Assembly: GCA_964401485.1 (NCBI GenBank)
Contig: CAYNYL010000005.1
Span: 8,158-72,157 of the forward strand
DNA: 64,000 nucleotides
Direction: 5' to 3'
From: an uncultured Gammaproteobacteria bacterium
GTDB lineage: Bacteria; Patescibacteriota; Patescibacteriia; UBA9934
Shown here: positions 1-53,193 of the stretch, one piece after another
Numbering within the stretch: the stretch's first letter is position 1
How the letters are laid out: every line of letters begins with the position of its first letter
Notes under the pieces: model-generated
What the model saw: only the letters and a program-made list of their open reading frames with translations
What the model was told of the DNA's origin: nothing
Databases searched by the model: none
Position numbers and translations under genes: made by a program

Positions 1-765
1 TACTACACAAACTGGGAGGCGGGTGTACAAACCTACATAACGGAGCACAATGCAAACCTCAAGGAGGGCGAGGTCCCGATGGAAACGTGCGAAATCCCAA
101 CCGAATATGACGATGTCCATGTTCCACAAAACACTCCGGACATCTCAATTCGCTCCCCTCGAAACGGGGACAACGTCGCACGCATCGTAACGCTCGAAAC
201 GCGCTCCTCCGCCCCACGAGGGATCTCGCGCCTCGAGTACGCGATCGATGGTCTCTTCATCGTCACTTCACAACCAACCGAAAACTTCTCATTCGAACTC
301 CCGACCTGGGTTACGGCAGGCGTCCACACTCTCACCGTCACCGCCTACGACGATGTCGACAATAAAAATACCGACTCCGTCACTATAAGCGTCACTGAGG
401 GAACGGGAGCCGTTCCGCCATACACCATCTCAAACCCCTTCGACAACCAAATCATCGAGAGTGGTGGCGATCCCTATACAATTGTCATCGAGAGTCCGCA
501 AAGCGGTGGCGTCGCTTCCGTAAACCTAATTCTTACTAACCACGCGACAGGCGAGCGAACCTTCCTCTACCAGGCCTCGGAACCCGCGCCGATCATCAGC
601 GTGCCTTGGACGCCAGGAGCTCCAGGCCTCTACCTTCTTTCAACCGCGAGCTATACGTCAGAAGGTCAGCGAATCGACGGTTCACCAATACGCATCATCG
701 TACGAGAACGCGTCCAGGTTCCGGTACCGACCCCAGAAGAAACCGACCAACCACCAACGGAATAA
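1..765 (+). CDS. C-terminal fragment of a secreted protein with bacterial Ig-like repeats (the reading frame is open from base 1, so the 5' end lies outside the window)
   Basis: Frame 1 is open from position 1 (YYTNWEAGVQ...) through the stop at 765. Repeated beta-strand-rich segments (TLTVTAYDDVDNKNTDSVTISV) are typical of Ig-like/Big domains. A hairpin terminator follows. Confidence 0.5.
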   Translation, partial: YYTNWEAGVQTYITEHNANLKEGEVPMETCEIPTEYDDVHVPQNTPDISIRSPRNGDNVARIVTLETRSSAPRGISRLEYAIDGLFIVTSQPTENFSFELPTWVTAGVHTLTVTAYDDVDNKNTDSVTISVTEGTGAVPPYTISNPFDNQIIESGGDPYTIVIESPQSGGVASVNLILTNHATGERTFLYQASEPAPIISVPWTPGAPGLYLLSTASYTSEGQRIDGSPIRIIVRERVQVPVPTPEETDQPPTE

Positions 766-766
766 T

Positions 767-800
767 AAGACCGAGGCCATGCGCCTCGGTCTTATTATTC
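767..800 (+). terminator. Rho-independent terminator (GACCGAGGC-atgc-GCCTCGGTC followed by a T-rich run)
   Basis: Perfect 9-bp stem read directly in the sequence. Confidence 0.6.
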
Positions 801-1013
801 ACCTCTTCTTATTTTCATGGTAAAAACCAAGGTCGAATCAATCGACCCTCCAACAGCGGAAGGAGGTAGGGTGCAGCTACAGCCCGTAAGCCTCCGTTCT
901 TAGCCCGCTCGAAAACCGCGACAATCTCTGGATCGTACACTGGACGGCGCCCTTGTAGCCCTCCCGTCCCCACAATTCGCCCCTTCGGCGCCTCCTGTGG
1001 GGACGTTTTCGTT

Positions 1014-1451
1014 TTATTGCCCGATCTGTGCCCAGTTATACGGGGTCTCCCAAAGGCGTGCAGACACAAGCTTCGGGCTTTCCGGCAAATTCGCGATCAG
1101 CTTACTCAAACGAGTAAAAATCCAGTTCACCATGTTTTCCGCCGTCGAATCAAACGGGACAACAATGTGCTTTAAATTAGGATTTTGTTTGTAAAACGCA
1201 ACCATAATTTCATCAGTATCAGAGACCATAAACGCGTGATCACAAATATCATGAACATTCTCGTCGAGGAGTTTTTTAATATCACCAAAATCAACAACCA
1301 TCCCCCGGCTGGATAAATCTCGATCCACACTCACCTTGCCCTCAATAACAATCTCAAGAACGTATTGGTGGCCATGTAAATTAACACACTTCCCACCATG
1401 TCCATGTAGACGATGACCCATGCACCACTCAATTCGTTTAGAAATCTGCAT
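1014..1451 (-). CDS. queD: 6-pyruvoyl-tetrahydropterin synthase family protein (QueD-like)
   Basis: CxxHGH and HGHxY zinc-binding motifs (EWCMGHRLHGHGGKCVNLHGHQY). I chose the internal Met (MQISKRIEW) as the start to match the family N-terminus and to avoid overlap with the next gene. Confidence 0.75.
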   Translation of the reverse strand: MQISKRIEWCMGHRLHGHGGKCVNLHGHQYVLEIVIEGKVSVDRDLSSRGMVVDFGDIKKLLDENVHDICDHAFMVSDTDEIMVAFYKQNPNLKHIVVPFDSTAENMVNWIFTRLSKLIANLPESPKLVSARLWETPYNWAQIGQ

Positions 1452-1461
1452 ATCGGTATAG

Positions 1462-2208
1462 TTATGAGCAAAGATAGTAGCCAAGTTGTGTATCTTTGAG
1501 ATACGCGCCCCAGTAGTCTCGTCCAAATGCAACGATACCCTCACACGAAACAACAGGAGAGATTCTTTTTATAGATGAATACCCCGCCTCTTTTGCCGCA
1601 CGTTCAAATGCCTTTGGACTCACATAGAATGCATTGAGGCGACAAATCTCTTTCCCATCACCTGCATAGAGAATGATCAGATAGGGCGAACCGTCAGCCA
1701 CATCACCGTGCACAATTTTTCGAGCACCGTACTTTTTAAGATTCTTCGCGCTTGGTAAATCGATGACAAATAGAGCCTTCCCGCCTTCTCGAAGAGCACG
1801 CTTTATTTTTCTAAGAAATCTCACCAACCCTTCTCGGTCAGCCAAATAATTAACAAGAAATGGAGCATTAACGACATCCGCCCTCGGAAGTTTATCGAAG
1901 AATACGTCCCAAAGTAGATACTCTTCCCCGGGACTCGCCAACTTTTTCGCCGCAGCGATCTGGACAGGCGAAGAGTCTAGGCCGATAACACGCGCGGCCC
2001 CCTTACCGTGAAACGCGCGAGAAAAGAAACCGGAACCGCATCCAAGATCAAGGACATCTTTTCCCGAAAGATCTCCGGACGCACCAAGAACCGTTGGCAA
2101 GATCGAATAACGCTTATCAGGCTTCTCGTCACTTATCTTGTAGTACGCCGAAAGTTCATCAAAATTATTTTGGGCCAGTGTCGTTATCATAGCGCTTTCA
2201 TAGGCCAA
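1462..2208 (-). CDS. Class I SAM-dependent methyltransferase
   Basis: Motif I VLDLGCGSGFF. Typical length and fold signatures. Confidence 0.7.
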   Translation of the reverse strand: MAYESAMITTLAQNNFDELSAYYKISDEKPDKRYSILPTVLGASGDLSGKDVLDLGCGSGFFSRAFHGKGAARVIGLDSSPVQIAAAKKLASPGEEYLLWDVFFDKLPRADVVNAPFLVNYLADREGLVRFLRKIKRALREGGKALFVIDLPSAKNLKKYGARKIVHGDVADGSPYLIILYAGDGKEICRLNAFYVSPKAFERAAKEAGYSSIKRISPVVSCEGIVAFGRDYWGAYLKDTQLGYYLCS

Positions 2209-2327
2209 AAATACCTAAAACTAGTCGTTTTTGTAAAACATGGTTATAATGATTTTGCTCGTTTTACTTTGTTAATTTAAGTTTTGTTGATATTTTTCAG
2301 GTTTTTTGTAAAAAAATACTTTACACT

Positions 2328-3068
2328 ATGAATTTTTTAAGCGCCTTGCGCGGGATTGGGCTTAGCGAAAGCGACGCAAACGTCTATCTCGCGATTTTAA
2401 AGGGTGGACCATCAACGGTACTGCAAATCGCCGAAGGCTCAGGACTTACCCGACAGATGATTTATCACATTCTGCCAAACCTTCTACAAAAAGGCCTTAT
2501 AAAAAGCGTGCTTGTGAAAAAAACACGAAGATACCAGGTTGTCGACCTGGCGGCTCTTAGAGATTTCGCAGAAGAGGCGAGTAAAGCAATCATTAATATT
2601 TTACCAGAACTCAAGCGGCTCACCCCCGAACAAAGTCCAAAAGCCACCGTTCAAATTTACAGCAACACCCTCAGTATGCGAGAGTGGTACCGAAGGTTTA
2701 TCAAGGAGGCCACACCCGAAGATGAGCTGCTTGTCCTCGCAACAAACCGTGTTTGGATCAAAACCGATGAAGTCTACCTGAAAAAATTCATCGATTTCAA
2801 AAATAAGATCGGTATTCACGATAAAATCATTGCCCCTGACACAGATGCGTCACGCGCATACGCAAAAAGCATGAACCAGCCGAACGCAGAGTATCGATTC
2901 CTGAGGAAGGCCTGGAGTGACGGCGTGGAAAAATGGATTTGGAAAAACACCGTCTCCCTCCTTACAACCATCGATCACCAAGCGCAGCTCATCGTTATCG
3001 AGTCCGATGCACTCGCAACAATGGAACGTGCTGAATTTCTCGCAACTTGGCACACTCTTCCCAATTAA
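2328..3068 (+). CDS. TrmB-family transcriptional regulator (N-terminal wHTH)
   Basis: N-terminal SESDANVYLAILKGGPSTVLQIAEGSGLTRQMIYHIL matches the TrmB HTH. A C-terminal sensor-like domain follows. Confidence 0.65.
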   Translation: MNFLSALRGIGLSESDANVYLAILKGGPSTVLQIAEGSGLTRQMIYHILPNLLQKGLIKSVLVKKTRRYQVVDLAALRDFAEEASKAIINILPELKRLTPEQSPKATVQIYSNTLSMREWYRRFIKEATPEDELLVLATNRVWIKTDEVYLKKFIDFKNKIGIHDKIIAPDTDASRAYAKSMNQPNAEYRFLRKAWSDGVEKWIWKNTVSLLTTIDHQAQLIVIESDALATMERAEFLATWHTLPN

Positions 3069-3099
3069 AAAGGTGGGCCCCACCTTCATTCCCTAGCCA

Positions 3100-4245
3100 T
3101 TATTGCCGAATAGGCATGATCAAGTAAATTTGTCGCCGATCCTCTGGCATCACCCGTGGAACAAGGGTGCACGGCCGGTCCTTATCGAGAACCCCGAGTA
3201 CGAGCTCTTCCGACTCAATTGCATTCACTCCATCAAGAAGGTACCGATAGTTAAGGACAATCATCTTCGCCTCCCCATCAACCGGTCCATCAACTCCAAT
3301 CGTATTCTCTCCTCGACTCGCATCCGCACCAACGAGATCAATTCCATCGAGCGTTTCGCGAACTTTTATCGCAACATCGTTAAGCCCATTTCGTGAAAAG
3401 AGACTTGAGGTCTTAATTGCCTGCACAAACTCCTTCTTTGAGAGAAGAATTTCCGTCTTTTTCTCCTTAGGGAGAATTTGGCGATAGTTAGGGTATTGCC
3501 CCTCGATCGTTCGGCTCGTTACCCTGATATTTGCATAGGAAAAGACCATCTGCCCCTCGCCAAGATGAAGGTCAACGGTTGGTGGAGCATCCGGCTCGTC
3601 TTGATACATGGAAAGAATGCGCAGAACTTCCGCAAGCGTACGGCTTGGCGCAATAACCGAGATCGCTTCCTTTGGCCCAGACGATACCCGAGAGACGACC
3701 TCACTTAAGCGGTAGCTGTCGGTTGCCGCAAAGACCACCGACCCTTCACCCTCCTCAAGATGATTAAACGCAATGTAAACACCCGCAAGCTCCGGACGCG
3801 ACTCATTCGTCGCGGAAGCGAAGATCACCTGCGAGAGGGCCTCCTTGAGCGCCGTAATCGAGAGTCCAAACGCTACCCCTCCCTCGACCGGAGGCACAAG
3901 CGGATAATCCGCCGAAGGAATCCCTTTAATTTTCGTTTTCGCCTTCTTTGAAGCAACAAAGAGTGTGTCATCGTAAAGATCGAGATCCACTCGATCATTT
4001 GGAAGAAGTGACACGACGTCAAAGAAGAGCTTGGAGGGAACGGTATAGCTACCCTGCTGATCCACCTTTCCTCGAATCGAACAGGAGATGGCAAGTTCAA
4101 GGTTTGTCGTTACGAGCTGAATCCCTGAGGCGTCCGCTTCTATATAAACATTATTGAGAATTGGAAGATTGACGTTCTTCGTACTTGCACGTGAAACGAT
4201 TGCTAACCCCCTTTGTAAGTTCTCTTGTGTACAGGATGCTTTCAC
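3100..4245 (-). CDS. dnaN: DNA polymerase III beta subunit (sliding clamp)
   Basis: The N-terminus (ENLQRGLAIVSRAS..LPIL) and overall length are typical of DnaN. It lies immediately downstream of dnaA. Confidence 0.9.
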   Translation of the reverse strand: MKASCTQENLQRGLAIVSRASTKNVNLPILNNVYIEADASGIQLVTTNLELAISCSIRGKVDQQGSYTVPSKLFFDVVSLLPNDRVDLDLYDDTLFVASKKAKTKIKGIPSADYPLVPPVEGGVAFGLSITALKEALSQVIFASATNESRPELAGVYIAFNHLEEGEGSVVFAATDSYRLSEVVSRVSSGPKEAISVIAPSRTLAEVLRILSMYQDEPDAPPTVDLHLGEGQMVFSYANIRVTSRTIEGQYPNYRQILPKEKKTEILLSKKEFVQAIKTSSLFSRNGLNDVAIKVRETLDGIDLVGADASRGENTIGVDGPVDGEAKMIVLNYRYLLDGVNAIESEELVLGVLDKDRPCTLVPRVMPEDRRQIYLIMPIRQ

Positions 4246-4470
4246 AGTTCTTTATTTTAAATATTTTATATATAAGACAGTAATAACAGTAAGGGGTGTG
4301 GGCGGAGGGGATAACGCGAACGAGGCTTGTGGGACCTGGTGTTTTTGGGGTGTGCCCTGTGGGTTTGTGGTGTGGTTTGTCCTGGTATGGACTGGGGAGA
4401 AGTTTCGAGGGGTTTGTCGCCTCCTTGTTTCGCCCTCTTTGTCCCCTTATTTGCCCCCAGGGTTATCCCC
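4246..4470. promoter_or_regulatory. dnaA-dnaN intergenic region, a candidate second oriC module: a 40-bp AT-rich DUE-like stretch (about 4246-4290) plus degenerate DnaA boxes
   Basis: cttattttaaatattttatatataag is AT-rich. Box-like elements read in the sequence: GGGGATAAC, TGTGGGACC, TGTGGGTTTGTGGTGTGGTTTG and TTATCCCCC. Confidence 0.45.
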
Positions 4471-5907
4471 CTAGTTTGCGTAGAGCTTTTGCTTGATGAG
4501 CTCGATGTCTCGCTTGAGGGTTTCGCTTTCTGCAACCATCTCTTTAATCTTTGAGTAGGCGTGCATTGCGGTCGTGTGGTCTCGTCCCCCGAGCTCTTGT
4601 CCAATTGATGGGTACGAGCTCTTCATTTCTTCTCGTAGAAGGTACATGATGATTTGTCGCGGGAAAGCGAGGCGCTTTTCTCGGCTCTTTCCAAGAACAT
4701 GGTCCATGTCGATATCGAAATAGTCGGAAACGGTGATGATGATTTGCTTTGGAGAAATCGTCTTTTTCATTGAATCCGAACCGTAGCTCGCGATTAGGGG
4801 TTTGATCGAGTCAATCGTGGCCTTGATGTTTTTGAATTGGTGCCAGGCAATGATTTTATTTAAGGCGCCCTCGAGCTCTCGGACATTGGATTGAATGTTC
4901 TCGCAAATATAGTGGAGCACCTCGCGTTCAAGGTTTACGCCGCGATTGAGGCACTTGGCGTGGAGGATGGCAATACGTGTTTCGAGGTCAGGGGCTCCAA
5001 TATCAACAAGCATTCCCCACTCGAGACGAGAAAGAAGACGTTTTTCAAGACCGGCGATCACTTTTGGTGCGCGATCAGAGCAAATGACGATTTGTTTGTT
5101 CTCTTGATGGAGGGCATTGAACGTGTGGAAGAACTCTTCTTGGGTCCCCTCTTTTCCTGTAATGAACTGGATGTCGTCAATTAAAAGAACGTCGACATTG
5201 CGGTAGCGATCCTTGAATTCTTTGGCTTTTCCTCCGCGTACCGCTTGGATGAAGTCATTTGTAAACGTTTCACATGTTACATAGAGGGCGCGACTTCCTG
5301 GTTTTCGACGAAGGATCTCGTTTCCAACCGCGTGTAGAAGGTGGGTTTTACCAAGTCCGACGCCCCCGTAAATAAAGAGTGGGTTATAGGTACCTCCTGG
5401 TTGAGCTGCTACTGCTTGTGAGGCGGCGTGCGCGAGCTCGTTTTGCTTTCCGACAACGTAGTTATCGAAAACGTAGTGACGGTTGAGACCGCCCGCCTTA
5501 TCAAAGCCCGTTGTTTCGGCTCCCGCGAAGCTTTCGCTGGTAAATCCGAGATCTTGTGGTGCTTCTTCCGTGTGTTGTGGGCGGATATCGAGGTAGATGT
5601 GCTTTTCCGCTGGCTGTTGCTTTTCAAAAATGACCGGCTCGGGCTCGCGAGGGCGTGTTTCGATTCGGTATTCGAGATTTCGAATGGTTTGCTCCGTGAT
5701 CGATTGGAGTGTTTGTAAAATGTCACGATGATATTTCTTCTCAAGCCAGGTTTTCGTGAACGTGTTTGGAACAGCGATGGTAAATCCCTGATCGGTCACA
5801 TTCGCGATGAACGTGTTTCTAAACCAAGTAGTGAATTGGGCCTTACTGAGTTTGAGTTCAAGCTCGCCAAGGGCGGCTTGCCACAGTTCGTGGGTGTTCA
5901 TAAGCAT
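4471..5907 (-). CDS. dnaA: Chromosomal replication initiator protein DnaA
   Basis: AAA+ Walker A GGVGLGKTHLL and a C-terminal DnaA-box-binding domain. Confidence 0.95.
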   Translation of the reverse strand: MLMNTHELWQAALGELELKLSKAQFTTWFRNTFIANVTDQGFTIAVPNTFTKTWLEKKYHRDILQTLQSITEQTIRNLEYRIETRPREPEPVIFEKQQPAEKHIYLDIRPQHTEEAPQDLGFTSESFAGAETTGFDKAGGLNRHYVFDNYVVGKQNELAHAASQAVAAQPGGTYNPLFIYGGVGLGKTHLLHAVGNEILRRKPGSRALYVTCETFTNDFIQAVRGGKAKEFKDRYRNVDVLLIDDIQFITGKEGTQEEFFHTFNALHQENKQIVICSDRAPKVIAGLEKRLLSRLEWGMLVDIGAPDLETRIAILHAKCLNRGVNLEREVLHYICENIQSNVRELEGALNKIIAWHQFKNIKATIDSIKPLIASYGSDSMKKTISPKQIIITVSDYFDIDMDHVLGKSREKRLAFPRQIIMYLLREEMKSSYPSIGQELGGRDHTTAMHAYSKIKEMVAESETLKRDIELIKQKLYAN

Positions 5908-5957
5908 GAGTAGGGAATCCCCTCCAAATTAGTGACGACGGGGTCATCATATACCAC

Positions 5958-6036
5958 ATATCCACAGCTCACAAGCCGGCCATTTGTGTGGATTTTGAGG
6001 ATAACTTTGTGGATAAGTCGACTAAACTGTGGACAA
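5958..6036. promoter_or_regulatory. DnaA-box cluster upstream of dnaA and overlapping the rpmH upstream region (oriC/dnaA promoter region)
   Basis: atATCCACAg at 5958-5966, TGTGGATT at 5987-5994, TGTGGATAA (perfect) at 6008-6016, TGTGGACAA at 6028-6036. Confidence 0.7.
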
Positions 6037-6089
6037 GCGGGGGTTTGTTGACGAAAAAGGCCCCTGATGCTATAGTCAGTCTACATTTT

Positions 6090-6242
6090 ATGCCAAAGCG
6101 CACTTATCAGCCGAAAAAGCGACGACGCGCGAAAGTCCATGGATTCCGAAAGCGGATGAAATCAGCGACAGGACGCGTTGTCCTAAAGAGACGACGGGCG
6201 AAAGGACGAAAGCGTCTTACCGTGTCGGCTCGGCCACGATAA
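6090..6242 (+). CDS. rpmH: 50S ribosomal protein L34
   Basis: [23 protein letters not shown]... is the canonical L34 sequence. The true start is the internal ATG at 6090 of the longer tracked ORF. Confidence 0.9.
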
Positions 6243-6282: not shown

Positions 6283-6624
6283 ATGAAAATCGCAAATCAC
6301 CGACTTCGTAAAACAACCGATATTGAGCGTGCCTATAAAAAAGGCCAAAGTATTTACGATTCCGCGGTTGGTGTTAAAGTGTATCGTCGCGGAGACGCCG
6401 AGCCTATGCGCATCGCGTTTATTGTTGGGGTCAAGGTGAGTAAGCGCGCGGTTGAGCGCAATCGCCTGCGACGTCAGTATCGAGAACTTGTGCGAGAACT
6501 GATTGTTAACCCGAAACCGGGGGTTGACGTGCTTGTTCTTGTCTCGCGTCCCTCGCTTGAACTTACGTTTGCCGAAAAGCGCACGCGAATCGAGCAAATC
6601 TTGAACCGCGCAAAGCTCTTATGA
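6283..6624 (+). CDS. rnpA: Ribonuclease P protein component
   Basis: Basic ~113-aa protein directly after rpmH. Family-typical KKGQ..RLRR motifs. Confidence 0.85.
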   Translation: MKIANHRLRKTTDIERAYKKGQSIYDSAVGVKVYRRGDAEPMRIAFIVGVKVSKRAVERNRLRRQYRELVRELIVNPKPGVDVLVLVSRPSLELTFAEKRTRIEQILNRAKLL

Positions 6625-6860
6625 TCTCTCTTCGAAGCGTTGCTGTACTACCGATTCGTTTGTATCAACTCACACTTTCTCCGGACCACGGTCTTGTTTC
6701 CGTCCTCTATCCTTACGGCGCCTGTCGCTACTACCCGAGCTGTTCGGAGTATACAGCGCAAGCTATTTTGAAGTACGGAATTATTTCTGGAATTTTTCGA
6801 GGCGGAAAACGTATTCTTCGTTGCCACCCGTTCGCTAAGTCAAGGATCGATCACCCGTAA
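6621..6860 (+). CDS. yidD: Membrane protein insertion efficiency factor YidD
   Basis: YPSCSEY motif. Overlaps the rnpA stop by 4 nt, as is typical. Confidence 0.85.
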   Translation: MISLRSVAVLPIRLYQLTLSPDHGLVSVLYPYGACRYYPSCSEYTAQAILKYGIISGIFRGGKRILRCHPFAKSRIDHP

Positions 6861-7101: not shown

Positions 7102-8397
7102 TTACTTGATCATGACGCTCTTAAGGTGCTCAAGAGCCGCCTTATTCTTCAGTTGCATCTCAATGTATGCGCGATACTCTGGGGAATAAATCTGCTTCTT
7201 GGCCTCGGCATTATCTTTGTAATTTTCAGCAATGCGGTCGAGCTCCTTATCAAGCGTTTCTTCGCTAACGGTGATTTTCTCCGCTTCGATGATTGACTTG
7301 AGAACAAGCGAGGCTTTGATGCGCTCAAGCGCTCCCTTTGTGAACTCGAGTTTGAGTTCGGCGATCGATTTCCCGATCGACTTGAGGTATTCGTCGAGCT
7401 CCATTCCTCGGTCCTTGATTGTGTGCTCGAGCTCCATGACCATCTTATTCAATTCTTGATTGACAAGAAGCTCCGGGATTTCTTCAAAGGTTGATTTTGC
7501 AGAAATGGCATCGAGAATAGCCTTGTCTTGTCGGAGGGATTCGTCGTGAGTTCGCTCAGCGGTAATGTTTTCCGCAATCTTTTCCTCAAGTTCCTTTGCG
7601 GTGTTGAGACCGAGTGTCTTTGCGAACGCATCGTCAATCTCCGGGGCTTCGAGCTTGTAGATCTCGTTTACTGTCACGTCGAAATCGACATCTTTTCCTG
7701 CGAGGTGCTTTTGGTAGTGCGATTCAGGAAACGGAAGGGTGAACGAGCGCACCTCCTCTTCTTTTGCTCCGAGAAGTTTCTCGACGAGGCCTGGAATGTA
7801 GTGGGCTTCCCCGGTGTAAATTCCGTGATTTCGACCTTCTCCGCCCTCGAGTACAACTCCATTTTGTTTCATGACGAGATTGACGACCGTCTTGTCTCCT
7901 TTTTCGAGTGCACTTCCCTTTTCTTTTCGGACCTCCTTAGTTCGCATCATGCGTAGGTCACGCTTTGCGTTTTCAATGAGTTCTGGTGTTGCGGTTGGAT
8001 CCTCCTTCGCAACGGTAATCTCCTTGTAGTTTGCAAGCTTGATCACGTGAGGATAAAGCGCAACTTCTGCAGTCACGACAATCGGGTTACCTGGAGCGAG
8101 TACGTCGGTGTGAAAGTGGGGTTGCCCAACCGTCTCAAGATCCTCCTTAAGCATAGCTTCAACGAATTCGGCGCGAATAAGCTCTTCGGCGCAAGCCTCA
8201 AGAAGCGCCATTTCGCCGACGCGTTGCTTCACTGTTTCGTAGGTGGCCTTTCCTGGGCGGAAACCAGGGATTGCGCTTTGCTCGCTCATTCGGGACGCTG
8301 CGCGCTTCATTCCTTCCTCGATTCGCTCCGTATCAATCGTTAAGGTGATCTTCGCGGTATTCTTCTCTTTCTCAATGGTATATGACATAGATAGCAC
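7102..8397 (-). CDS. tig: Trigger factor
   Basis: N-terminal ribosome-binding domain (SAIPGFRPGKATYETVKQRVG). The ORF starts at a GTG; an ATG lies 3 codons in (MSYTIEK). Confidence 0.9.
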   Translation of the reverse strand: MLSMSYTIEKEKNTAKITLTIDTERIEEGMKRAASRMSEQSAIPGFRPGKATYETVKQRVGEMALLEACAEELIRAEFVEAMLKEDLETVGQPHFHTDVLAPGNPIVVTAEVALYPHVIKLANYKEITVAKEDPTATPELIENAKRDLRMMRTKEVRKEKGSALEKGDKTVVNLVMKQNGVVLEGGEGRNHGIYTGEAHYIPGLVEKLLGAKEEEVRSFTLPFPESHYQKHLAGKDVDFDVTVNEIYKLEAPEIDDAFAKTLGLNTAKELEEKIAENITAERTHDESLRQDKAILDAISAKSTFEEIPELLVNQELNKMVMELEHTIKDRGMELDEYLKSIGKSIAELKLEFTKGALERIKASLVLKSIIEAEKITVSEETLDKELDRIAENYKDNAEAKKQIYSPEYRAYIEMQLKNKAALEHLKSVMIK

Positions 8398-12235: not shown

Positions 12236-12736
12236 AGAGCAGGTTTAGATATGGGTCAGCATAGCCTAGACGCCTCCATGTGGCAAGAAAATCGGGAAAA
12301 AGAAAAAGGGCGCGGTTGCTATTGGCGATAGAATTAATGGCCATAGCGGTAGCGCCCACGACATGGTTGACACCGGTCGTGGACACTGGGTTTTTATGAC
12401 CAATTTCTTGATCGTAACAACTCAGTGGCCAGTCGGCGCGCTTACCATGTAAAAACTGACATCCTACTCTACCATGAGGTGGTCTACGGGCCTTGTGCGC
12501 GCAAACCTGATGTGTGCACCCCCAGTGCATAGCATCACAGTACAGTAGTGGGATGTGCCCCGAACGATTGTCCCGAAAGCAGCTGACTTTCAGGTGTGGG
12601 ATTCGGGGAACCTCCCCCGTGTCATTGCTGGTAGATGACCAGCAAACGGGAATTGTTGAAAGAACTACTATTAGTATAAACCTTGAACACAAATAGTCAA
12701 CATCGAAATAGCTCAAATTTAAAGGCTTTTTTGAGA

Positions 12737-12810
12737 TTGTGGAAAAGTTTTGTGCGGTGGTTTCCACAAAGCTGTGGATAACTTATGCATATCCCACAAG
12801 TTATCCACAG
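12737..12810. promoter_or_regulatory. Third DnaA-box cluster
   Basis: TTGTGGAAA at 12737-12745, TTTCCACAA at 12761-12769, TGTGGATAA (perfect) at 12774-12782, ATATCCCACA at 12789-12798, TTATCCACA (perfect) at 12801-12809. Confidence 0.6.
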
Positions 12811-27385: not shown

Positions 27386-27558
27386 AGAAAACCCATTGGT
27401 AATTACCGATGGGTTATTTTGTACCCATATGTCATTTTACGACGCTCGGTTACCATAGACATGAACACATAAATTATCTTATGAAATTCAGCTAATACAA
27501 GCCAAATATCGTGGGTACGTGACGCGTGAAAATAGAGTAATGAGGGCTTATCCACACC

Positions 27559-29853
27559 GTGTGGATTGTGGTTTGGGTGTATACTTCTTGTGGTATGTTC
27601 AAAGGAGTGAGCTTTCACCACGGGCACGTATTCGCGGTGAATGTCATCGTTGGTGTACTTTCGATCGGTTTAGCACTGATCGTTATTGCGTTTGATACGC
27701 TCGCCGTGAATGCTTCGGGCGATGCGATTGTTGAGTTTTCGGGTCGAGTAATGGATGAGGAGGGAGCTCCTGTAACCGCGCCATCGCTTCAAATGGTTTT
27801 TCGACTCTATGACTCGGGTAGTAACGGGCAATGCATTTGGTCAAATTCCTCGTCCACCTGTGCTACGGCGACGCCAAGGACGGTATTCTTAACAAATGGA
27901 GTGTTTTCGGAAACCTTGGGGGATACTGCTCGAGGGTACGCATCAATGGAGGAGGTGGCTTTGAACAATTCCGAGGCGTATATCGGGCTCGTGATTGAGG
28001 GGCAGCCGGTTCGCGTCGGAGTTAACGGAGACATTTACATCACACTTCCGGACCAGTCGATCGAGGAAGAGCCTGTTGTAGAAGAGCCTGTGATTGAGGA
28101 GCCGGTGATCGAGGAACCTGTAGTCGAAGAGCCCGTCGTTGATGACCCCGGCTCAATCGAAACACCACCCGTGACCGAGCCAGGTCAGAGCAATGGAGAC
28201 GGGGGGTCGAGCGATTCGGGGACTCCAACAACCTCGACCGGTGGAAATGCTTCAGCGATAATCACGATCACGCCAAGAGTTGAGGCTGGTGGAAAGGAAC
28301 TTCCTGGCGGGGGAGTCTATCGATTGATTGAGGGGTTGCCGGTCGAACTTGTGCTAGCCTTGTCTGGCCCTGCTTCGTCTGTGCGTGTTGTGCAAAATGG
28401 AACGGAGCTCGCCGTAAGAAAAGAGTCAGACCGAATCTATCGGGCGAGACTCGCGACATCAGCTGGCGCCGTAACAGCAACCGTTGTGAGTGCGGGCGGT
28501 AAGTCGGCGGAGACGAAGTTACAAGTTGAGGCGGTTGGTGCTGGGCTGATCCGTGAAGTTGTCGGGACTGAAACGCGACCCGCCGTGGGCGCGACCGCAA
28601 CGCTCTATGAAGGAAATCTTCCATGGGTGGCGCTTTACGGTCAATCAAATCCGATCATTGTCGGTTCTGCGGGATCGGTTGGATGGCTTGTTGAGAATGG
28701 TAGTTATCGAGTGGAAATTTCTAAAGATGGATTTTTAAACGAGTCGCAGACGTTTGCAGTGACAAATGGCGTGGTTGCGCCGTCGGTCATTTTGAACGAG
28801 GATCCGCTCGCGCTTGTTGAGCCTGATGCTCCGATGGAGACGGAGCTGCCGACTGGATTTTCCGCGTCGGCGACTGAGGCGATCGCACGTGTTCGCGAAT
28901 CGATTGATGAATTTAGGTCATTGCCTGATGTACAAATTGTCGGAGACGTTGCGGTGCCGGTTGCGGTCGCATCTGCCGTTGGAGGAACGACCTCGCTTGC
29001 AACCTCGTTTAACTTGCTCCCGTATCTTCAGTATCTTTTCACATCCCCAATCTTATATATTGCTCGTCGGCGACGACGACCGTTTGGACGTGTGTACAAC
29101 GGATATACGAAAGTACCTATTTCGCTCGCGACGATACAGTTATTGAAGGACGGGAAGATCGTGAAAACAGCGGTAACGGATGAAGAGGGGCGCTTCTTTC
29201 TGCGAGCAGAGCCGGGAGAGTATACGCTTCAAGTAAAAAAACCCACCTTTACCTTCCCAAGTTCATTTGTCACATCGACCACCGACGGAGAGTATCTTGA
29301 TATTTATCGCGGTGAGACTCTTCGCGTTACCGAAGAGAATATTTTCGTGGCGCCAAATATTCCGGTTGATCACATTGAAGCGAACGCTATTTCAATCGAG
29401 CGGAAACAAAGAGTTAAGCACGTATTCAGAATCCTTCAGCGATTTGTTGCGGTGCTGGGGGTACTCCTCGCGTTATTCGGACTTGTTGTAAATCAAAACA
29501 TAGCAAGTCTCCTTGTCTTTGGACTTCAATTTGTTGTTCTTGTTGTGACACTTATTCTTTCGAGGCCAAAACGGCTTAAGGGGTGGGCAACGGTAACTGA
29601 TGGAGCAACCAAGGCTCCGATTGCGAATGCGGTAGTTCGACTCTTTGAGCCGACTTACAATAAGCTTCTTGAAACGACGGTCACGGATCGTTTTGGACGG
29701 TACGCGTTTGTTGTCGGGCCTAATAGCTACTACCTTACCGCTTCGGCTCCTGGCTATGCGGAAGGCTCCATTCGTTCGATTGATCGATCAGTAATGAAAC
29801 AGGTAGATACGCTTGCTGTTGACATCGCTTTGCAACAGTCCGTTTCGACCTAG
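27559..29853 (+). CDS. Large membrane/surface protein with a signal anchor, an (EEPVx) tandem repeat, carboxypeptidase-regulatory-like beta-sandwich domains and internal TM helices
   Basis: MFKGVSFHHGHVFAVNVIVGVLSIGLALIV is anchor-like. The repeats read EEPVVEEPVIEEPVIEEPVVEEPVV. VTDEEGRFFLRAEPGEYTL and TVTDRFGRYAFVVGPNSYYLTASAPGY look like CarboxypepD_reg. Confidence 0.6.
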   Translation: MWIVVWVYTSCGMFKGVSFHHGHVFAVNVIVGVLSIGLALIVIAFDTLAVNASGDAIVEFSGRVMDEEGAPVTAPSLQMVFRLYDSGSNGQCIWSNSSSTCATATPRTVFLTNGVFSETLGDTARGYASMEEVALNNSEAYIGLVIEGQPVRVGVNGDIYITLPDQSIEEEPVVEEPVIEEPVIEEPVVEEPVVDDPGSIETPPVTEPGQSNGDGGSSDSGTPTTSTGGNASAIITITPRVEAGGKELPGGGVYRLIEGLPVELVLALSGPASSVRVVQNGTELAVRKESDRIYRARLATSAGAVTATVVSAGGKSAETKLQVEAVGAGLIREVVGTETRPAVGATATLYEGNLPWVALYGQSNPIIVGSAGSVGWLVENGSYRVEISKDGFLNESQTFAVTNGVVAPSVILNEDPLALVEPDAPMETELPTGFSASATEAIARVRESIDEFRSLPDVQIVGDVAVPVAVASAVGGTTSLATSFNLLPYLQYLFTSPILYIARRRRRPFGRVYNGYTKVPISLATIQLLKDGKIVKTAVTDEEGRFFLRAEPGEYTLQVKKPTFTFPSSFVTSTTDGEYLDIYRGETLRVTEENIFVAPNIPVDHIEANAISIERKQRVKHVFRILQRFVAVLGVLLALFGLVVNQNIASLLVFGLQFVVLVVTLILSRPKRLKGWATVTDGATKAPIANAVVRLFEPTYNKLLETTVTDRFGRYAFVVGPNSYYLTASAPGYAEGSIRSIDRSVMKQVDTLAVDIALQQSVST
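28066..28140 (+). repeat. Five tandem 15-bp imperfect repeats (gaagagcctgttgta units) encoding EEPV(V/I)
   Basis: Read directly in the sequence. Confidence 0.8.
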
Positions 29854-37502: not shown

Positions 37503-38192
37503 ATGGCGTTTGTCATGCGAAAACTCGATGTAGCCCCGCAATTACTCGGGGATAAGCTTCGCGCCCTACGACGAGGGAAGGCGATTACTCTTGAGCTTAT
37601 CGAAAAGAAGACGCACATCCAACGGCGGTATCTTGAGGCTCTTGAACGAGGGCGCTACGAACTTCTTCCAGAGCCGCTCTATACCCGTAATTTTATCCGT
37701 TCCTATGCTCGGGCACTCGGGGCGGACGAGCAATACTTTATTGAGCTTTACGAAGACGAGGTGGGGGTTTGCGATTTGGTAAAACCGCTTCAAACCCCAA
37801 GACAACGCGTTCGCGCAAAGCTTCTCTTTGTATGGAATCGCGCAATACCGATGGCTATGGTTGGCCTTGTTGTTCTCGGGGTCTGTAGTTATATCGGGTA
37901 CCAGATTGTTCGGCTTACAGCGCCACCTGATATCATCGTCTTTTCTCCGGTCGACCAAAGTATTTCCTCGTCCCCAATCTTACTTGTTGAAGGTCTTGGA
38001 GAAAAAGAGACAACGATATTGATTAATCACGAGGAAGTTGTGGTCAATGATGACCAAACATTTTCTACGGAGATACATTTAGACCGTGGAATCAATACGA
38101 TCACCATCGAGGCATCGCGACGCTACTCGAGAAAAGTTGAGATTGAACGCACAGTACTATTCAATCCAGATACTGTGTCTCTTGATTTGTGA
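37503..38192 (+). CDS. RodZ-like protein (XRE-type HTH, a single TM, and a C-terminal DUF4115-like domain)
   Basis: The HTH reads LRALRRGKAITLELIEKKTHIQRRYLEALE and the TM reads AIPMAMVGLVVLGVCSYIGY. The protein has a C-terminal beta domain. Confidence 0.6.
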   Translation: MAFVMRKLDVAPQLLGDKLRALRRGKAITLELIEKKTHIQRRYLEALERGRYELLPEPLYTRNFIRSYARALGADEQYFIELYEDEVGVCDLVKPLQTPRQRVRAKLLFVWNRAIPMAMVGLVVLGVCSYIGYQIVRLTAPPDIIVFSPVDQSISSSPILLVEGLGEKETTILINHEEVVVNDDQTFSTEIHLDRGINTITIEASRRYSRKVEIERTVLFNPDTVSLDL

Positions 38193-38254
38193 ATAATTAG
38201 TGGCGGGAATTAACGGATTTGTTATTCTGTATTTATGGGGGCAACCCCATTTTA

Positions 38255-38263
38255 TTATCCACA
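38255..38263. promoter_or_regulatory. Perfect DnaA box TTATCCACA in the recA upstream region
   Basis: Read directly in the sequence. No LexA/Cheo box recognised. Confidence 0.4.
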
Positions 38264-38281: not shown

Positions 38282-39307
38282 ATGGCGAAGTCCATGACCG
38301 AGAAGACTGGCGGTGGTTCTGAGAAGCAGAACGCTGCGTTAGAGGCAATTAGTCAAATTAAGCAACGCTTTGGCGAAGGTGCGATTATGCGCCTTGGGGA
38401 CGCGAAGGCAATGCAAATCGATGCGATTCCAACTGGGTGTCTCTCGCTCGACTTGGCGCTCGGAATTGGTGGAGTTCCACGAGGACGTATTATTGAAATT
38501 TATGGACCGGAATCCTCCGGTAAAACAACACTTGCACAACATATCGTAGCCGAAACACAAAAGTTGGGCGGAGTTGCGGCGTTCGTAGATGCGGAGCATG
38601 CGCTTGATCCGGAGTATGCGAAGAAAATCGGTGTAAATATCGATGAAATGTACATTTCACAACCGGACACCGGCGAACAGGCGCTCGAGATTGTTGAAAC
38701 GCTTGTGAGGTCGAATGCGGTTGATGTGATCGTTGTAGACTCGGTTGCAGCGCTTACCCCTCGTGCGGAAATTGAAGGGGACATGGGGGATTCACACATG
38801 GGGCTCCAGGCCCGACTTATGAGTCAGGCACTTCGTAAACTTGCTGGTATTATCTCAAAGAGTAAAACGTCCGTGATTTTCATCAACCAGATTCGTATGA
38901 AAATCGGTGTGATGTTTGGCAATCCGGAGACGACCCCTGGTGGAAATGCCCTCAAGTTCTATGCCTCGGTACGCATGGAGATCCGTCGCGCCGCGCAAAT
39001 CAAGCAGGGTGAGGCGATTGTAGGAAACCATGTGAAGGTGAAGGTTGTAAAAAACAAGGTTGCGCCACCGTTTCAAAACGCGGAGTTCGATATCATGTAC
39101 AACGAGGGAATCTCTATCGCTGGAGACCTTGTGGACCTCGGGTCCGAGATGGCAGTCATTGATAAAAAGGGTAGCTCCTATAATTACGCGGGGGAACGCA
39201 TTGCTGTTGGGCGAGAGAATGCCAAGGCGATTCTCAAGGAGAATCAAGCTTTATCCGCTAAGATTCGCAAAGAAATAATGGATAAGGTAAAGGCATCTAG
39301 GGCCTAA
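38282..39307 (+). CDS. recA: Recombinase RecA
   Basis: Walker [12 protein letters not shown] and full-length family conservation. Start set at the ATG at 38282 (MAKSMTEK). Confidence 0.95.
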
Positions 39308-51587: not shown

Positions 51588-53078
<1,491 letters not shown>

Positions 53079-53193
53079 CATATATAGTTTATAACCCGAA
53101 GGTTATAGCTCTGCTTAAATAGACGTTGCAATCACACAGTTGTCAATTCTTTCTGTAGAGCCAATTTGGCTCGTTTTTAATGACCACGGGGGC

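Follow-up and report, generated by a model that had tools for sequence, protein, structure and literature searches.

A probable Bacillus-type chromosomal origin around dnaA in an Uhrbacteria-like member of the Patescibacteria

In Bacillus subtilis and Helicobacter pylori the upstream modules of the chromosomal origin, incAB and oriC1 respectively, bind DnaA and loop to a downstream module (PMC8235120), and even in model organisms such an upstream module is partly dispensable (PMC8235120). The basal unwinding system (BUS) of B. subtilis comprises DnaA boxes 6 and 7, the cluster GGCC, six DnaA-trios and an AT-rich region (PMC8235120). The rules by which a BUS is recognized, set out by Pelliciari et al., call for a DnaA box with at most 2 mismatches, optionally joined by a tandem box carrying up to 4, for a spacer of 0-16 bp (13 bp being the commonest length) that ends in a GC cluster of about 4 bp, and for a run of at least 3 trinucleotides, each with A in the middle, on the strand reading TGTGGATAA, with AT-rich DNA beyond (PMC8287927). 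The commonest arrangement is a tandem pair in which the upstream box lies nearer the consensus (PMC8287927), and a potential BUS is present in about 85% of the bacterial origins that have been predicted. Our literature searches turned up no account of a BUS in the oriC of any member of the Patescibacteria; a Peregrinibacteria genome paper placed the origin by GC skew and noted DnaA-box-like repeats nearby (PMC4736985). Here we describe the surroundings of dnaA in a 64-kb stretch of contig CAYNYL010000005.1 (assembly GCA_964401485.1), called the window in what follows, where the series rpmH, box cluster, dnaA, box cluster plus DNA-unwinding element (DUE) and dnaN is very probably the chromosomal oriC of an Uhrbacteria-like member of the Patescibacteria, of the B. 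subtilis type.

The spacer between dnaA and dnaN (4246-4470, 225 bp) contains a BUS at 4264-4315, in which two adjoining boxes are followed by a GC cluster of 4 bp, then by five DnaA-trios and finally by AT-rich DNA; in the sense of dnaA it reads TTATCCCCT CCGCCCACA CCCC TTA CTG TTA TTA CTG before the AT-rich DNA begins. Its parts are as follows, with mismatches counted here and throughout against the DnaA-box consensus TTATCCACA.

4306-4314, minus strand: distal BUS box TTATCCCCT (plus strand AGGGGATAA), 2 mismatches, the number allowed for the principal box, 13 bp from the first trio
4297-4305, minus strand: trio-proximal box CCGCCCACA (plus strand TGTGGGCGG), degenerate, 4 mismatches, the number allowed for a tandem box, with no gap to the distal box
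4293-4296, no strand assigned: GC cluster GGGG, read from the sequence, between the proximal box and the trios
4278-4292, plus strand: five DnaA-trios CAG TAA TAA CAG TAA, each with a central A, fitting the trio pattern (.A.){3,} of PMC8287927
4246-4277, no strand assigned: AT-rich candidate DNA-unwinding element, located by the duplex-stability minimum

All the sequence features listed in the BUS rules are thus found at 4278-4314, the better-matching box being the upstream one of the tandem pair, and the AT-rich DNA that should lie beyond the trios is provided by 4246-4277. From the better box to the first trio there are 13 bp, the commonest BUS spacing, made up of the 9-bp second box and GGGG. 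We predict that the trios at 4278-4292 form the track on which a DnaA oligomer binds single-stranded DNA. On the plus strand the degenerate boxes also yield the run GGGGTGTGGGCGGAGGGG at 4293-4310, which could form a G-quadruplex at the site of unwinding; the run is not conserved, the relatives having normal boxes there.

Conservation, rather than the BUS pattern, was used as the decisive evidence because the pattern alone is too unspecific. Seven relatives, found through their DnaA proteins (70-74% identity), were aligned with the window to give 8 sequences for the dnaA-dnaN spacer (alignment A1) and 8 for the dnaA-rpmH intergenic region (alignment A2). The block of box, box, GC cluster, trios and AT-rich DNA is the only well-conserved part of the spacer. 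On the dnaA-sense strand the trio columns read YTR five times over in 8/8 aligned sequences, the GC-cluster position is occupied by CCCC, GGGC, GGCC or TGCC in the relatives, and at the position of the trio-proximal box the relatives have TCATCCACA, CTGTCCACA or CTATCCACA, with 1-2 mismatches to TTATCCACA. One locus, L085, carries an identical box at the position equivalent to the distal BUS box 4306-4314. A hidden Markov model (HMM) built from the 7 relatives, with the window left out, gives a single match in the 64 kb, at 4264-4315 on the minus strand (E 7e-11). When the same HMM was applied to more distant loci, all 18 further matches with E<0.01 fell in the dnaA-dnaN spacer, among them matches in Berkelbacteria, Magasanikbacteria, Saccharibacteria, Clostridium, Peribacillus, Siminovitchia and Brevibacillus, and three additional relatives with DnaA identities of 64-68% gave the same outcome. 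Because the block is conserved and the profile matches are confined to dnaA-dnaN spacers, we regard the predicted element of the window as the same kind of element as the experimentally defined boxes 6 and 7, GGCC and trios of B. subtilis.

Phylogenetic footprinting with species representatives of the GTDB was also attempted and set aside, since even the nearest of their DnaA proteins reaches no more than 59% identity and their spacers do not align; the architecture of these loci is still informative. The two closest GTDB representatives by DnaA (56-59% identity), L001 (CAYJVQ010000006.1) and L002 (CAZIQG010000036.1), are both titled 'uncultured Gammaproteobacteria bacterium', and the remaining top DnaA matches are mostly metagenome-assembled genomes (MAGs) belonging to the Candidate Phyla Radiation (CPR), with some Chloroflexi. 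Like the CPR MAGs, L001 and L002 both have a BUS block with tandem boxes, a 4-bp GC cluster and trios before dnaN, and their record titles look mislabelled.

Among all duplex windows of 27, 40 and 50 bp in the 64 kb, the least stable of each length lies in the AT-rich stretch. The least stable 40-mer is 4248-4287 (88% A+T), and the 27-mer 4250-4276 has a free energy (dG) of -22.9 against a mean of -37.0 (standard deviation 3.1), that is, more than 4 standard deviations from the mean. On the other side of the trios there are five TGTGG cores, all on the plus strand, at 4297-4375, forming the densest 100-bp TGTGG/CCACA cluster of the window; the count of 5 compares with 0.86 in composition-preserving shuffles (P ~0.0006). 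The preliminary description of this locus had proposed a 40-bp AT-rich stretch, a G/T-rich run of degenerate TGTGG-core boxes and a DUE in this spacer, and all three are borne out, the last as a candidate supported by a complete BUS at 4264-4315 together with the stability minimum. The downstream module as a whole (4297-4471) contains 3 boxes with at most 2 mismatches and 6 with 3-4: sites within 2 mismatches are found only at 4306-4314, 4393-4401 and 4463-4471. The boxes other than those of the BUS are the following.

4328-4336, minus strand: degenerate box, 4 mismatches, in the same orientation as the BUS boxes
4358-4366 and 4371-4379, minus strand: degenerate boxes, 3 mismatches each, oriented like the BUS boxes
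4393-4401, minus strand: degenerate box TTCTCCCCA, 2 mismatches, oriented like the BUS boxes
4439-4447 and 4451-4459, plus strand: boxes of opposite orientation, 3 mismatches each, near the dnaA stop
4463-4471, plus strand: box TTATCCCCC of opposite orientation, 2 mismatches, overlapping the dnaA stop codon

In the relatives 2-4 boxes of opposite orientation lie just past the dnaA stop and are followed by boxes of the same orientation and then by the BUS, all with better matches to the consensus. The spacer boxes of the window appear to be a degenerate copy of this family pattern and are candidate DnaA sites. A TTATCCCC variant is enriched among these spacer boxes and is present in relatives too.

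Since the AT-rich stretch abuts the start codon of dnaN, one could suppose that the spacer carries expression signals only, namely a dnaN promoter or 5' untranslated region and, on the dnaA transcript, a tract rich in C and poor in G of the kind on which Rho loads (rut-like). On the dnaA-sense strand the spacer is indeed rich in C and A, as rut sites are (G 40, C 71, A 77, T 37), and the bias recurs in the spacers of L087, L091, L093 and L003, that of L093 being very CA-rich; it could arise from many degenerate boxes in one orientation, from an extreme leading-strand composition or from a rut-like tract. We nevertheless consider this explanation improbable. A scan of the minus strand of 4246-4470 found no sigma-70-like promoter or terminator, the conserved block keeps the exact form and register of box, box, GC cluster and trios, the TGTGG cores exceed what composition predicts, and near-consensus boxes occupy the corresponding places in relatives. 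Expression signals may well overlap the origin elements, in which case they would be an addition to them and not a replacement. With respect to dnaN itself, its GTG (4243-4245) has no recognizable Shine-Dalgarno sequence, and 7/8 aligned sequences share the start context CTGTGAAA (columns 298-304 of A1).

The GC skew also changes sign at this locus. Cumulated along the window, G-C reaches its lowest value at 3946, some 300 bp into dnaN, and the skew goes from -0.15 (1-3099) and -0.09 (dnaN) to +0.28 (spacer) and +0.12 (dnaA), remaining positive over the rest of the window (the right 58 kb). It does not simply follow the coding strand, because it is positive over 9-16 kb despite long open reading frames on the minus strand, several of which have family matches. 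The onset of positive skew at ~3950-4250 fits a rightward fork running head-on through dnaA after opening in the dnaA-dnaN spacer, the situation known from B. subtilis. Skew sign change, BUS and duplex-stability minimum all fall within 350 bp of one another, in the gene order rpmH-dnaA-dnaN that is the usual context of an origin, and the suggestion in the preliminary description that the locus marks the replication origin agrees with the BUS, with the easiest-melting DNA and with the skew minimum. One observation further along the window concerns the 16S rRNA gene (51589-53085, minus strand), which would be head-on to the inferred rightward fork and lies in DNA of negative local GC skew. Neither a 23S nor a 5S gene was detected across the 64 kb, so that the rRNA genes are unlinked, a condition reported as common in CPR (PMC8172020).

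The genes on which this account depends were called as NCBIfam equivalogs unless otherwise stated.

3100-4245, minus strand: dnaN (DNA polymerase III beta clamp), TIGR00663, E 2.5e-76, full length, its GTG start at 4245 abutting the AT-rich stretch directly and the start region kept in A1
4471-5907, minus strand: dnaA, between the two box modules, TIGR00362, E 4e-160
6090-6242, plus strand: rpmH
6283-6624, plus strand: rnpA
6621-6860, plus strand: yidD
7102-8397, minus strand: tig (gene call)

The DnaA protein encoded here aligns with the B. subtilis DnaA structure 8btg (E 2.6e-123) and keeps the Ile that corresponds to B. subtilis Ile190 in the initiator-specific motif. Its domain IV aligns to 1j1v, the complex of E. 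coli domain IV with DNA, with R..P..DHTT..H conserved, and the residues aligned to E. coli R399, P423, D433, H434, T435 and H439, which we take to be the base contacts from the 1J1V work, are all kept. The residues for box reading and single-strand binding thus appear to be retained, and because those of domain IV are conserved the use of the E. coli box consensus is justified. The nearest public DnaA proteins are 64-74% identical, the best match among GTDB species representatives reaching 59%. Since several of the closest matches are named Candidatus Uhrbacteria or Patescibacteria by their sources, the host is, as judged from its DnaA relatives, an Uhrbacteria-like member of the CPR.

Upstream of dnaA a second group of boxes is found at 5958-6036, together with two predicted promoters that diverge from one another.

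5958-5966, plus strand: DnaA box ATATCCACA, 1 mismatch
5987-5995, minus strand: DnaA box, 2 mismatches
5996-6004, minus strand: DnaA box TTATCCTCA, 1 mismatch
6008-6016, minus strand: perfect DnaA box, reading TGTGGATAA on the plus strand, its column kept in the relatives (A2)
6028-6036, minus strand: DnaA box TTGTCCACA, 1 mismatch
5946-5974, minus strand: predicted dnaA promoter (promoter scan), -35 TTGTGA at 5974-5969, 17-bp spacer, -10 TATGAT at 5951-5946
6048-6076, plus strand: predicted rpmH promoter, TTGACG, 17 bp, TATAGT, the -35 beginning at 6048 and invariant in A2, the -10 ending at 6076

Of the five boxes in the module one is perfect, three deviate from the consensus at 1 position and one at 2; four of them (5987-6036) are co-oriented. 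Sites with at most 1 mismatch number 20 in the window compared with 9.3 +/- 3.0 in shuffles (0/100 shuffles reach 20), and the 250-bp stretch upstream of dnaA has the joint-highest box score of the 64 kb. The four or five strong boxes, one of them perfect, that had been reported upstream of dnaA are therefore present as five; their assignment to the rpmH leader has to be corrected, as they sit upstream of the promoter of rpmH, in the region from which the dnaA and rpmH promoters diverge. Box 5958-5966 is inside the 17-bp spacer of the predicted dnaA promoter, and the arrangement TTG..CTGTGGATA..TA..AT is invariant or nearly so in 8/8 sequences of A2; the remaining four are all located between the -35 elements of dnaA and rpmH. 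In E. coli and B. subtilis dnaA is autoregulated through DnaA boxes in its promoter. Because one of the upstream boxes sits inside the conserved dnaA promoter, we infer that autoregulation of dnaA is at least part of the role of this cluster, which is placed so as to repress the gene.

The same facts make it quite conceivable, in our judgment somewhat short of an even chance, that the origin has a single module, with all origin function in the dnaA-dnaN spacer and the upstream boxes serving only as an operator for dnaA and perhaps rpmH. Apart from the positions of the boxes relative to the two promoters, this explanation can draw on the region upstream of dnaA, where the BUS profile finds no match and where the least stable duplex windows of the 64 kb are absent, and on the model systems, where B. 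subtilis does not need all of its boxes and H. pylori oriC1 is unneeded for DUE opening in vitro (PMC8235120). The five boxes, four of them co-oriented, do however look like the clusters that bind DnaA and loop in the upstream modules of B. subtilis and H. pylori, and the roles of operator and origin are compatible and inseparable from sequence. Of the two-module origin proposed in the preliminary description, two box clusters flanking dnaA, with a DUE downstream only, are thus seen, and joint action of the clusters in initiation is conjecture.

Several points weigh against reading the locus as a bipartite B. subtilis-type origin. The generic BUS pattern is weak: in its loose form it has 75 matches in the window compared with 35 +/- 7 in shuffles, and in its strict form (13-bp spacer, at least 5 trios) 2 matches compared with 0.1, the second being inside a coding region at ~1316. 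For this reason the BUS regular expression was given up as stand-alone evidence. The proximal BUS box of the window, with its 4 mismatches, is the worst among the relatives; just 3.9 kb of sequence is available to the left of the skew minimum; and in the relatives the skew minimum within +/-10 kb lies within ~0.1-0.8 kb of the spacer in only 4/8 cases (agreement in L083, L085, L087 and L092, disagreement in L081, L086, L091 and L093). With 4/8 agreeing, the local skew of relatives was discarded as independent confirmation, because skew over +/-10 kb is too noisy. Finally, the upstream boxes may serve mainly, or exclusively, as an autoregulatory operator, in which case 'bipartite' describes the architecture alone.

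A further rival reading would be that the origin is elsewhere on the chromosome and that only DnaA-regulated promoters are found near dnaA. The uninformative local skew in half of the relatives would permit this, as would other box clusters in the window, in particular the one at 12738-12809, which scores equal to the cluster upstream of dnaA. That cluster was considered as a second origin and rejected: it has no BUS match and none of the least stable windows, and it fronts a promoter and a structured RNA (below). Given in addition the coincidence of skew switch, BUS and stability minimum and the usual gene context, we consider an origin elsewhere very unlikely indeed. What was directly observed, namely the sequence elements and how they are conserved, the stability of the duplex, the switch in skew and the residues of DnaA, points instead to the B. 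subtilis-type oriC described above.

From these elements we infer DnaA binding, unwinding, looping and autoregulation in the following manner. DnaA would load onto the tandem boxes 4306-4314 and 4297-4305, probably aided by the flanking degenerate boxes, and an oligomer of ATP-DnaA would extend over the 4-bp GC cluster onto the plus-strand trios at 4278-4292. By stretching the trio strand the oligomer would cause the adjacent AT-rich DNA at 4246-4277 to open, helicases would be loaded there, and the rightward fork would then pass head-on through dnaA. The upstream cluster at 5958-6036 would repress dnaA and might serve, in addition, as a second module of the origin, brought to the downstream one by looping.

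DnaA boxes occur at other places in the window. A perfect box (38255-38263, plus strand) is 19 nt upstream of the recA start at 38282 (PF00154, E 7e-140), and a box with 1 mismatch (38188-38196) overlaps the end of the HTH_25 gene that precedes recA, an arrangement in which recA may be DnaA-regulated. A further perfect box (27548-27556) lies 3 nt before the GTG of a 764-aa protein with carboxypeptidase-regulatory-like domains, whose gene (27559-29853) is downstream of a tRNA-Arg. The cluster at 12738-12809 precedes an unannotated RNA, with homologues in related loci, whose features are given below.

12738-12746: DnaA box TTTTCCACA, 1 mismatch
12773-12781 and 12801-12809: inverted pair of perfect DnaA boxes (box scan)
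~12700-12673, minus strand: predicted promoter, TTGACT, 16 bp, TATACT
12300-12667, minus strand: predicted structured RNA of ~300-370 nt, unannotated, with a conserved non-coding core at 12667-12366
L081 3246-3528; L083 3537-3819; L087 476-759; L088 826-1141 (minus strand): RNA homologues
L089 4169-4456 (minus strand); L090 1088-1373 (minus strand); L091 325-636; L092 2135-2423: RNA homologues

The box pair is kept in eight related loci, ~70-100 bp upstream of a near-consensus promoter. The alignment of nine RNA sequences yields 49 consensus pairs, and compensatory changes occur in 22; 94% of cells are paired, the corresponding values being 83% for shuffles and 38-50% for slid partners, and 0/500 shuffles reach any of the observed measures. 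The RNA sequence profile has at most 1 significant match per locus (L085 and L090 being overlapping pieces of one contig), and a strict pattern scan of metagenomes returned 3 loci only. After the RNA core, near 12345-12300, a stem-loop is followed by a T-run, which we read as a putative terminator. Where the DNA reaches far enough, a gene of the DksA/TraR zinc-finger type is found 3' of the RNA (window, L081, L083, L087, L089, L091 and L092). In the window, and in each of the five loci for which genes were called (L081, L083, L087, L091 and L092), this gene is in turn followed by lspA and a ChlI/ComM-like gene.

As to what the RNA is, Rfam 15 gave no family match at E values up to 10 in the window (one chance hit) and up to 5 in three homologous loci, ARAGORN found no transfer-messenger RNA (tmRNA), and signatures of RNase P, tmRNA, signal recognition particle, 6S and 5S RNAs were absent by eye. 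RNase P RNAs of the CPR can be very diverged (PMC8172020), and the RNA could conceivably be a known one, very diverged. We take it to be either an RNA gene that has escaped annotation or a long leader belonging to the DksA-like operon, and it is probably under DnaA control. We found no description of DnaA-regulated small RNAs in the literature. A broader proposal, which we put forward as speculative and rather unlikely, is that the DnaA network of this clade near the origin includes a third conserved element besides the Bacillus-type oriC, namely the box pair upstream of the RNA promoter. If DnaA does control the RNA, or if the RNA or the box cluster feeds back on initiation, this would be a new class of DnaA-linked non-coding RNA or leader in Patescibacteria.

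The origin itself is of a well-known kind, real but ordinary, and its description is a useful annotation and not a surprising one; current understanding of initiation is unchanged. It fixes the origin and hence the replichore orientation of this Patescibacteria contig, and it indicates, by conservation, a Bacillus-type unwinding system in Uhrbacteria-like and other uncultured CPR lineages, which fits the proposal of an ancestral system (PMC8287927). The defined 50-bp element can serve as an anchor for CPR assemblies, for coverage-based estimates of growth and for in vitro work with recombinant DnaA.

Among known origins the closest is oriC of B. subtilis (incAB - dnaA - incC), with which the locus shares gene context, orientation and box clusters on both sides of dnaA, and also the order of tandem boxes, 4-bp GC cluster, central-A trios and AT-rich DNA just before dnaN, the upstream box of the pair being nearer the consensus in both. 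The BUS profile of the clade matches the dnaA-dnaN spacer of Bacillaceae too, and the DnaA resembles 8btg. The two differ in that B. subtilis has 620 bp with 13 boxes upstream, whereas the window has ~80 bp with 5, and 189 bp with 7 boxes downstream compared with 225 bp in the window; its six trios are of the TAG type, the window's five of the TAA/CAG type. The proximal box of the window has 4 mismatches, and several of the window's boxes are of the TTATCCCC variant. The origin of H. pylori (oriC1 - dnaA - oriC2) likewise has two box clusters split by dnaA, with a DUE, GC-rich spacer and trios only downstream, beside a weak and then a stronger box, but its box consensus is TYATTCACN, it has topology-sensitive boxes and its flanking genes are others; the resemblance is architectural, and homology is not claimed. 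The E. coli oriC (DUE 13-mers - R1 box) is similar in the orientation of the DUE-proximal box relative to the unwound strand and in the 13-bp distance between box and DUE, and differs in being continuous, in lying between gidA and mioC and not at dnaA, in using integration host factor and in lacking a classical GC cluster. With both E. coli and B. subtilis the locus would share the arrangement for dnaA autoregulation, a box in the predicted spacer of the dnaA promoter with more boxes just upstream.

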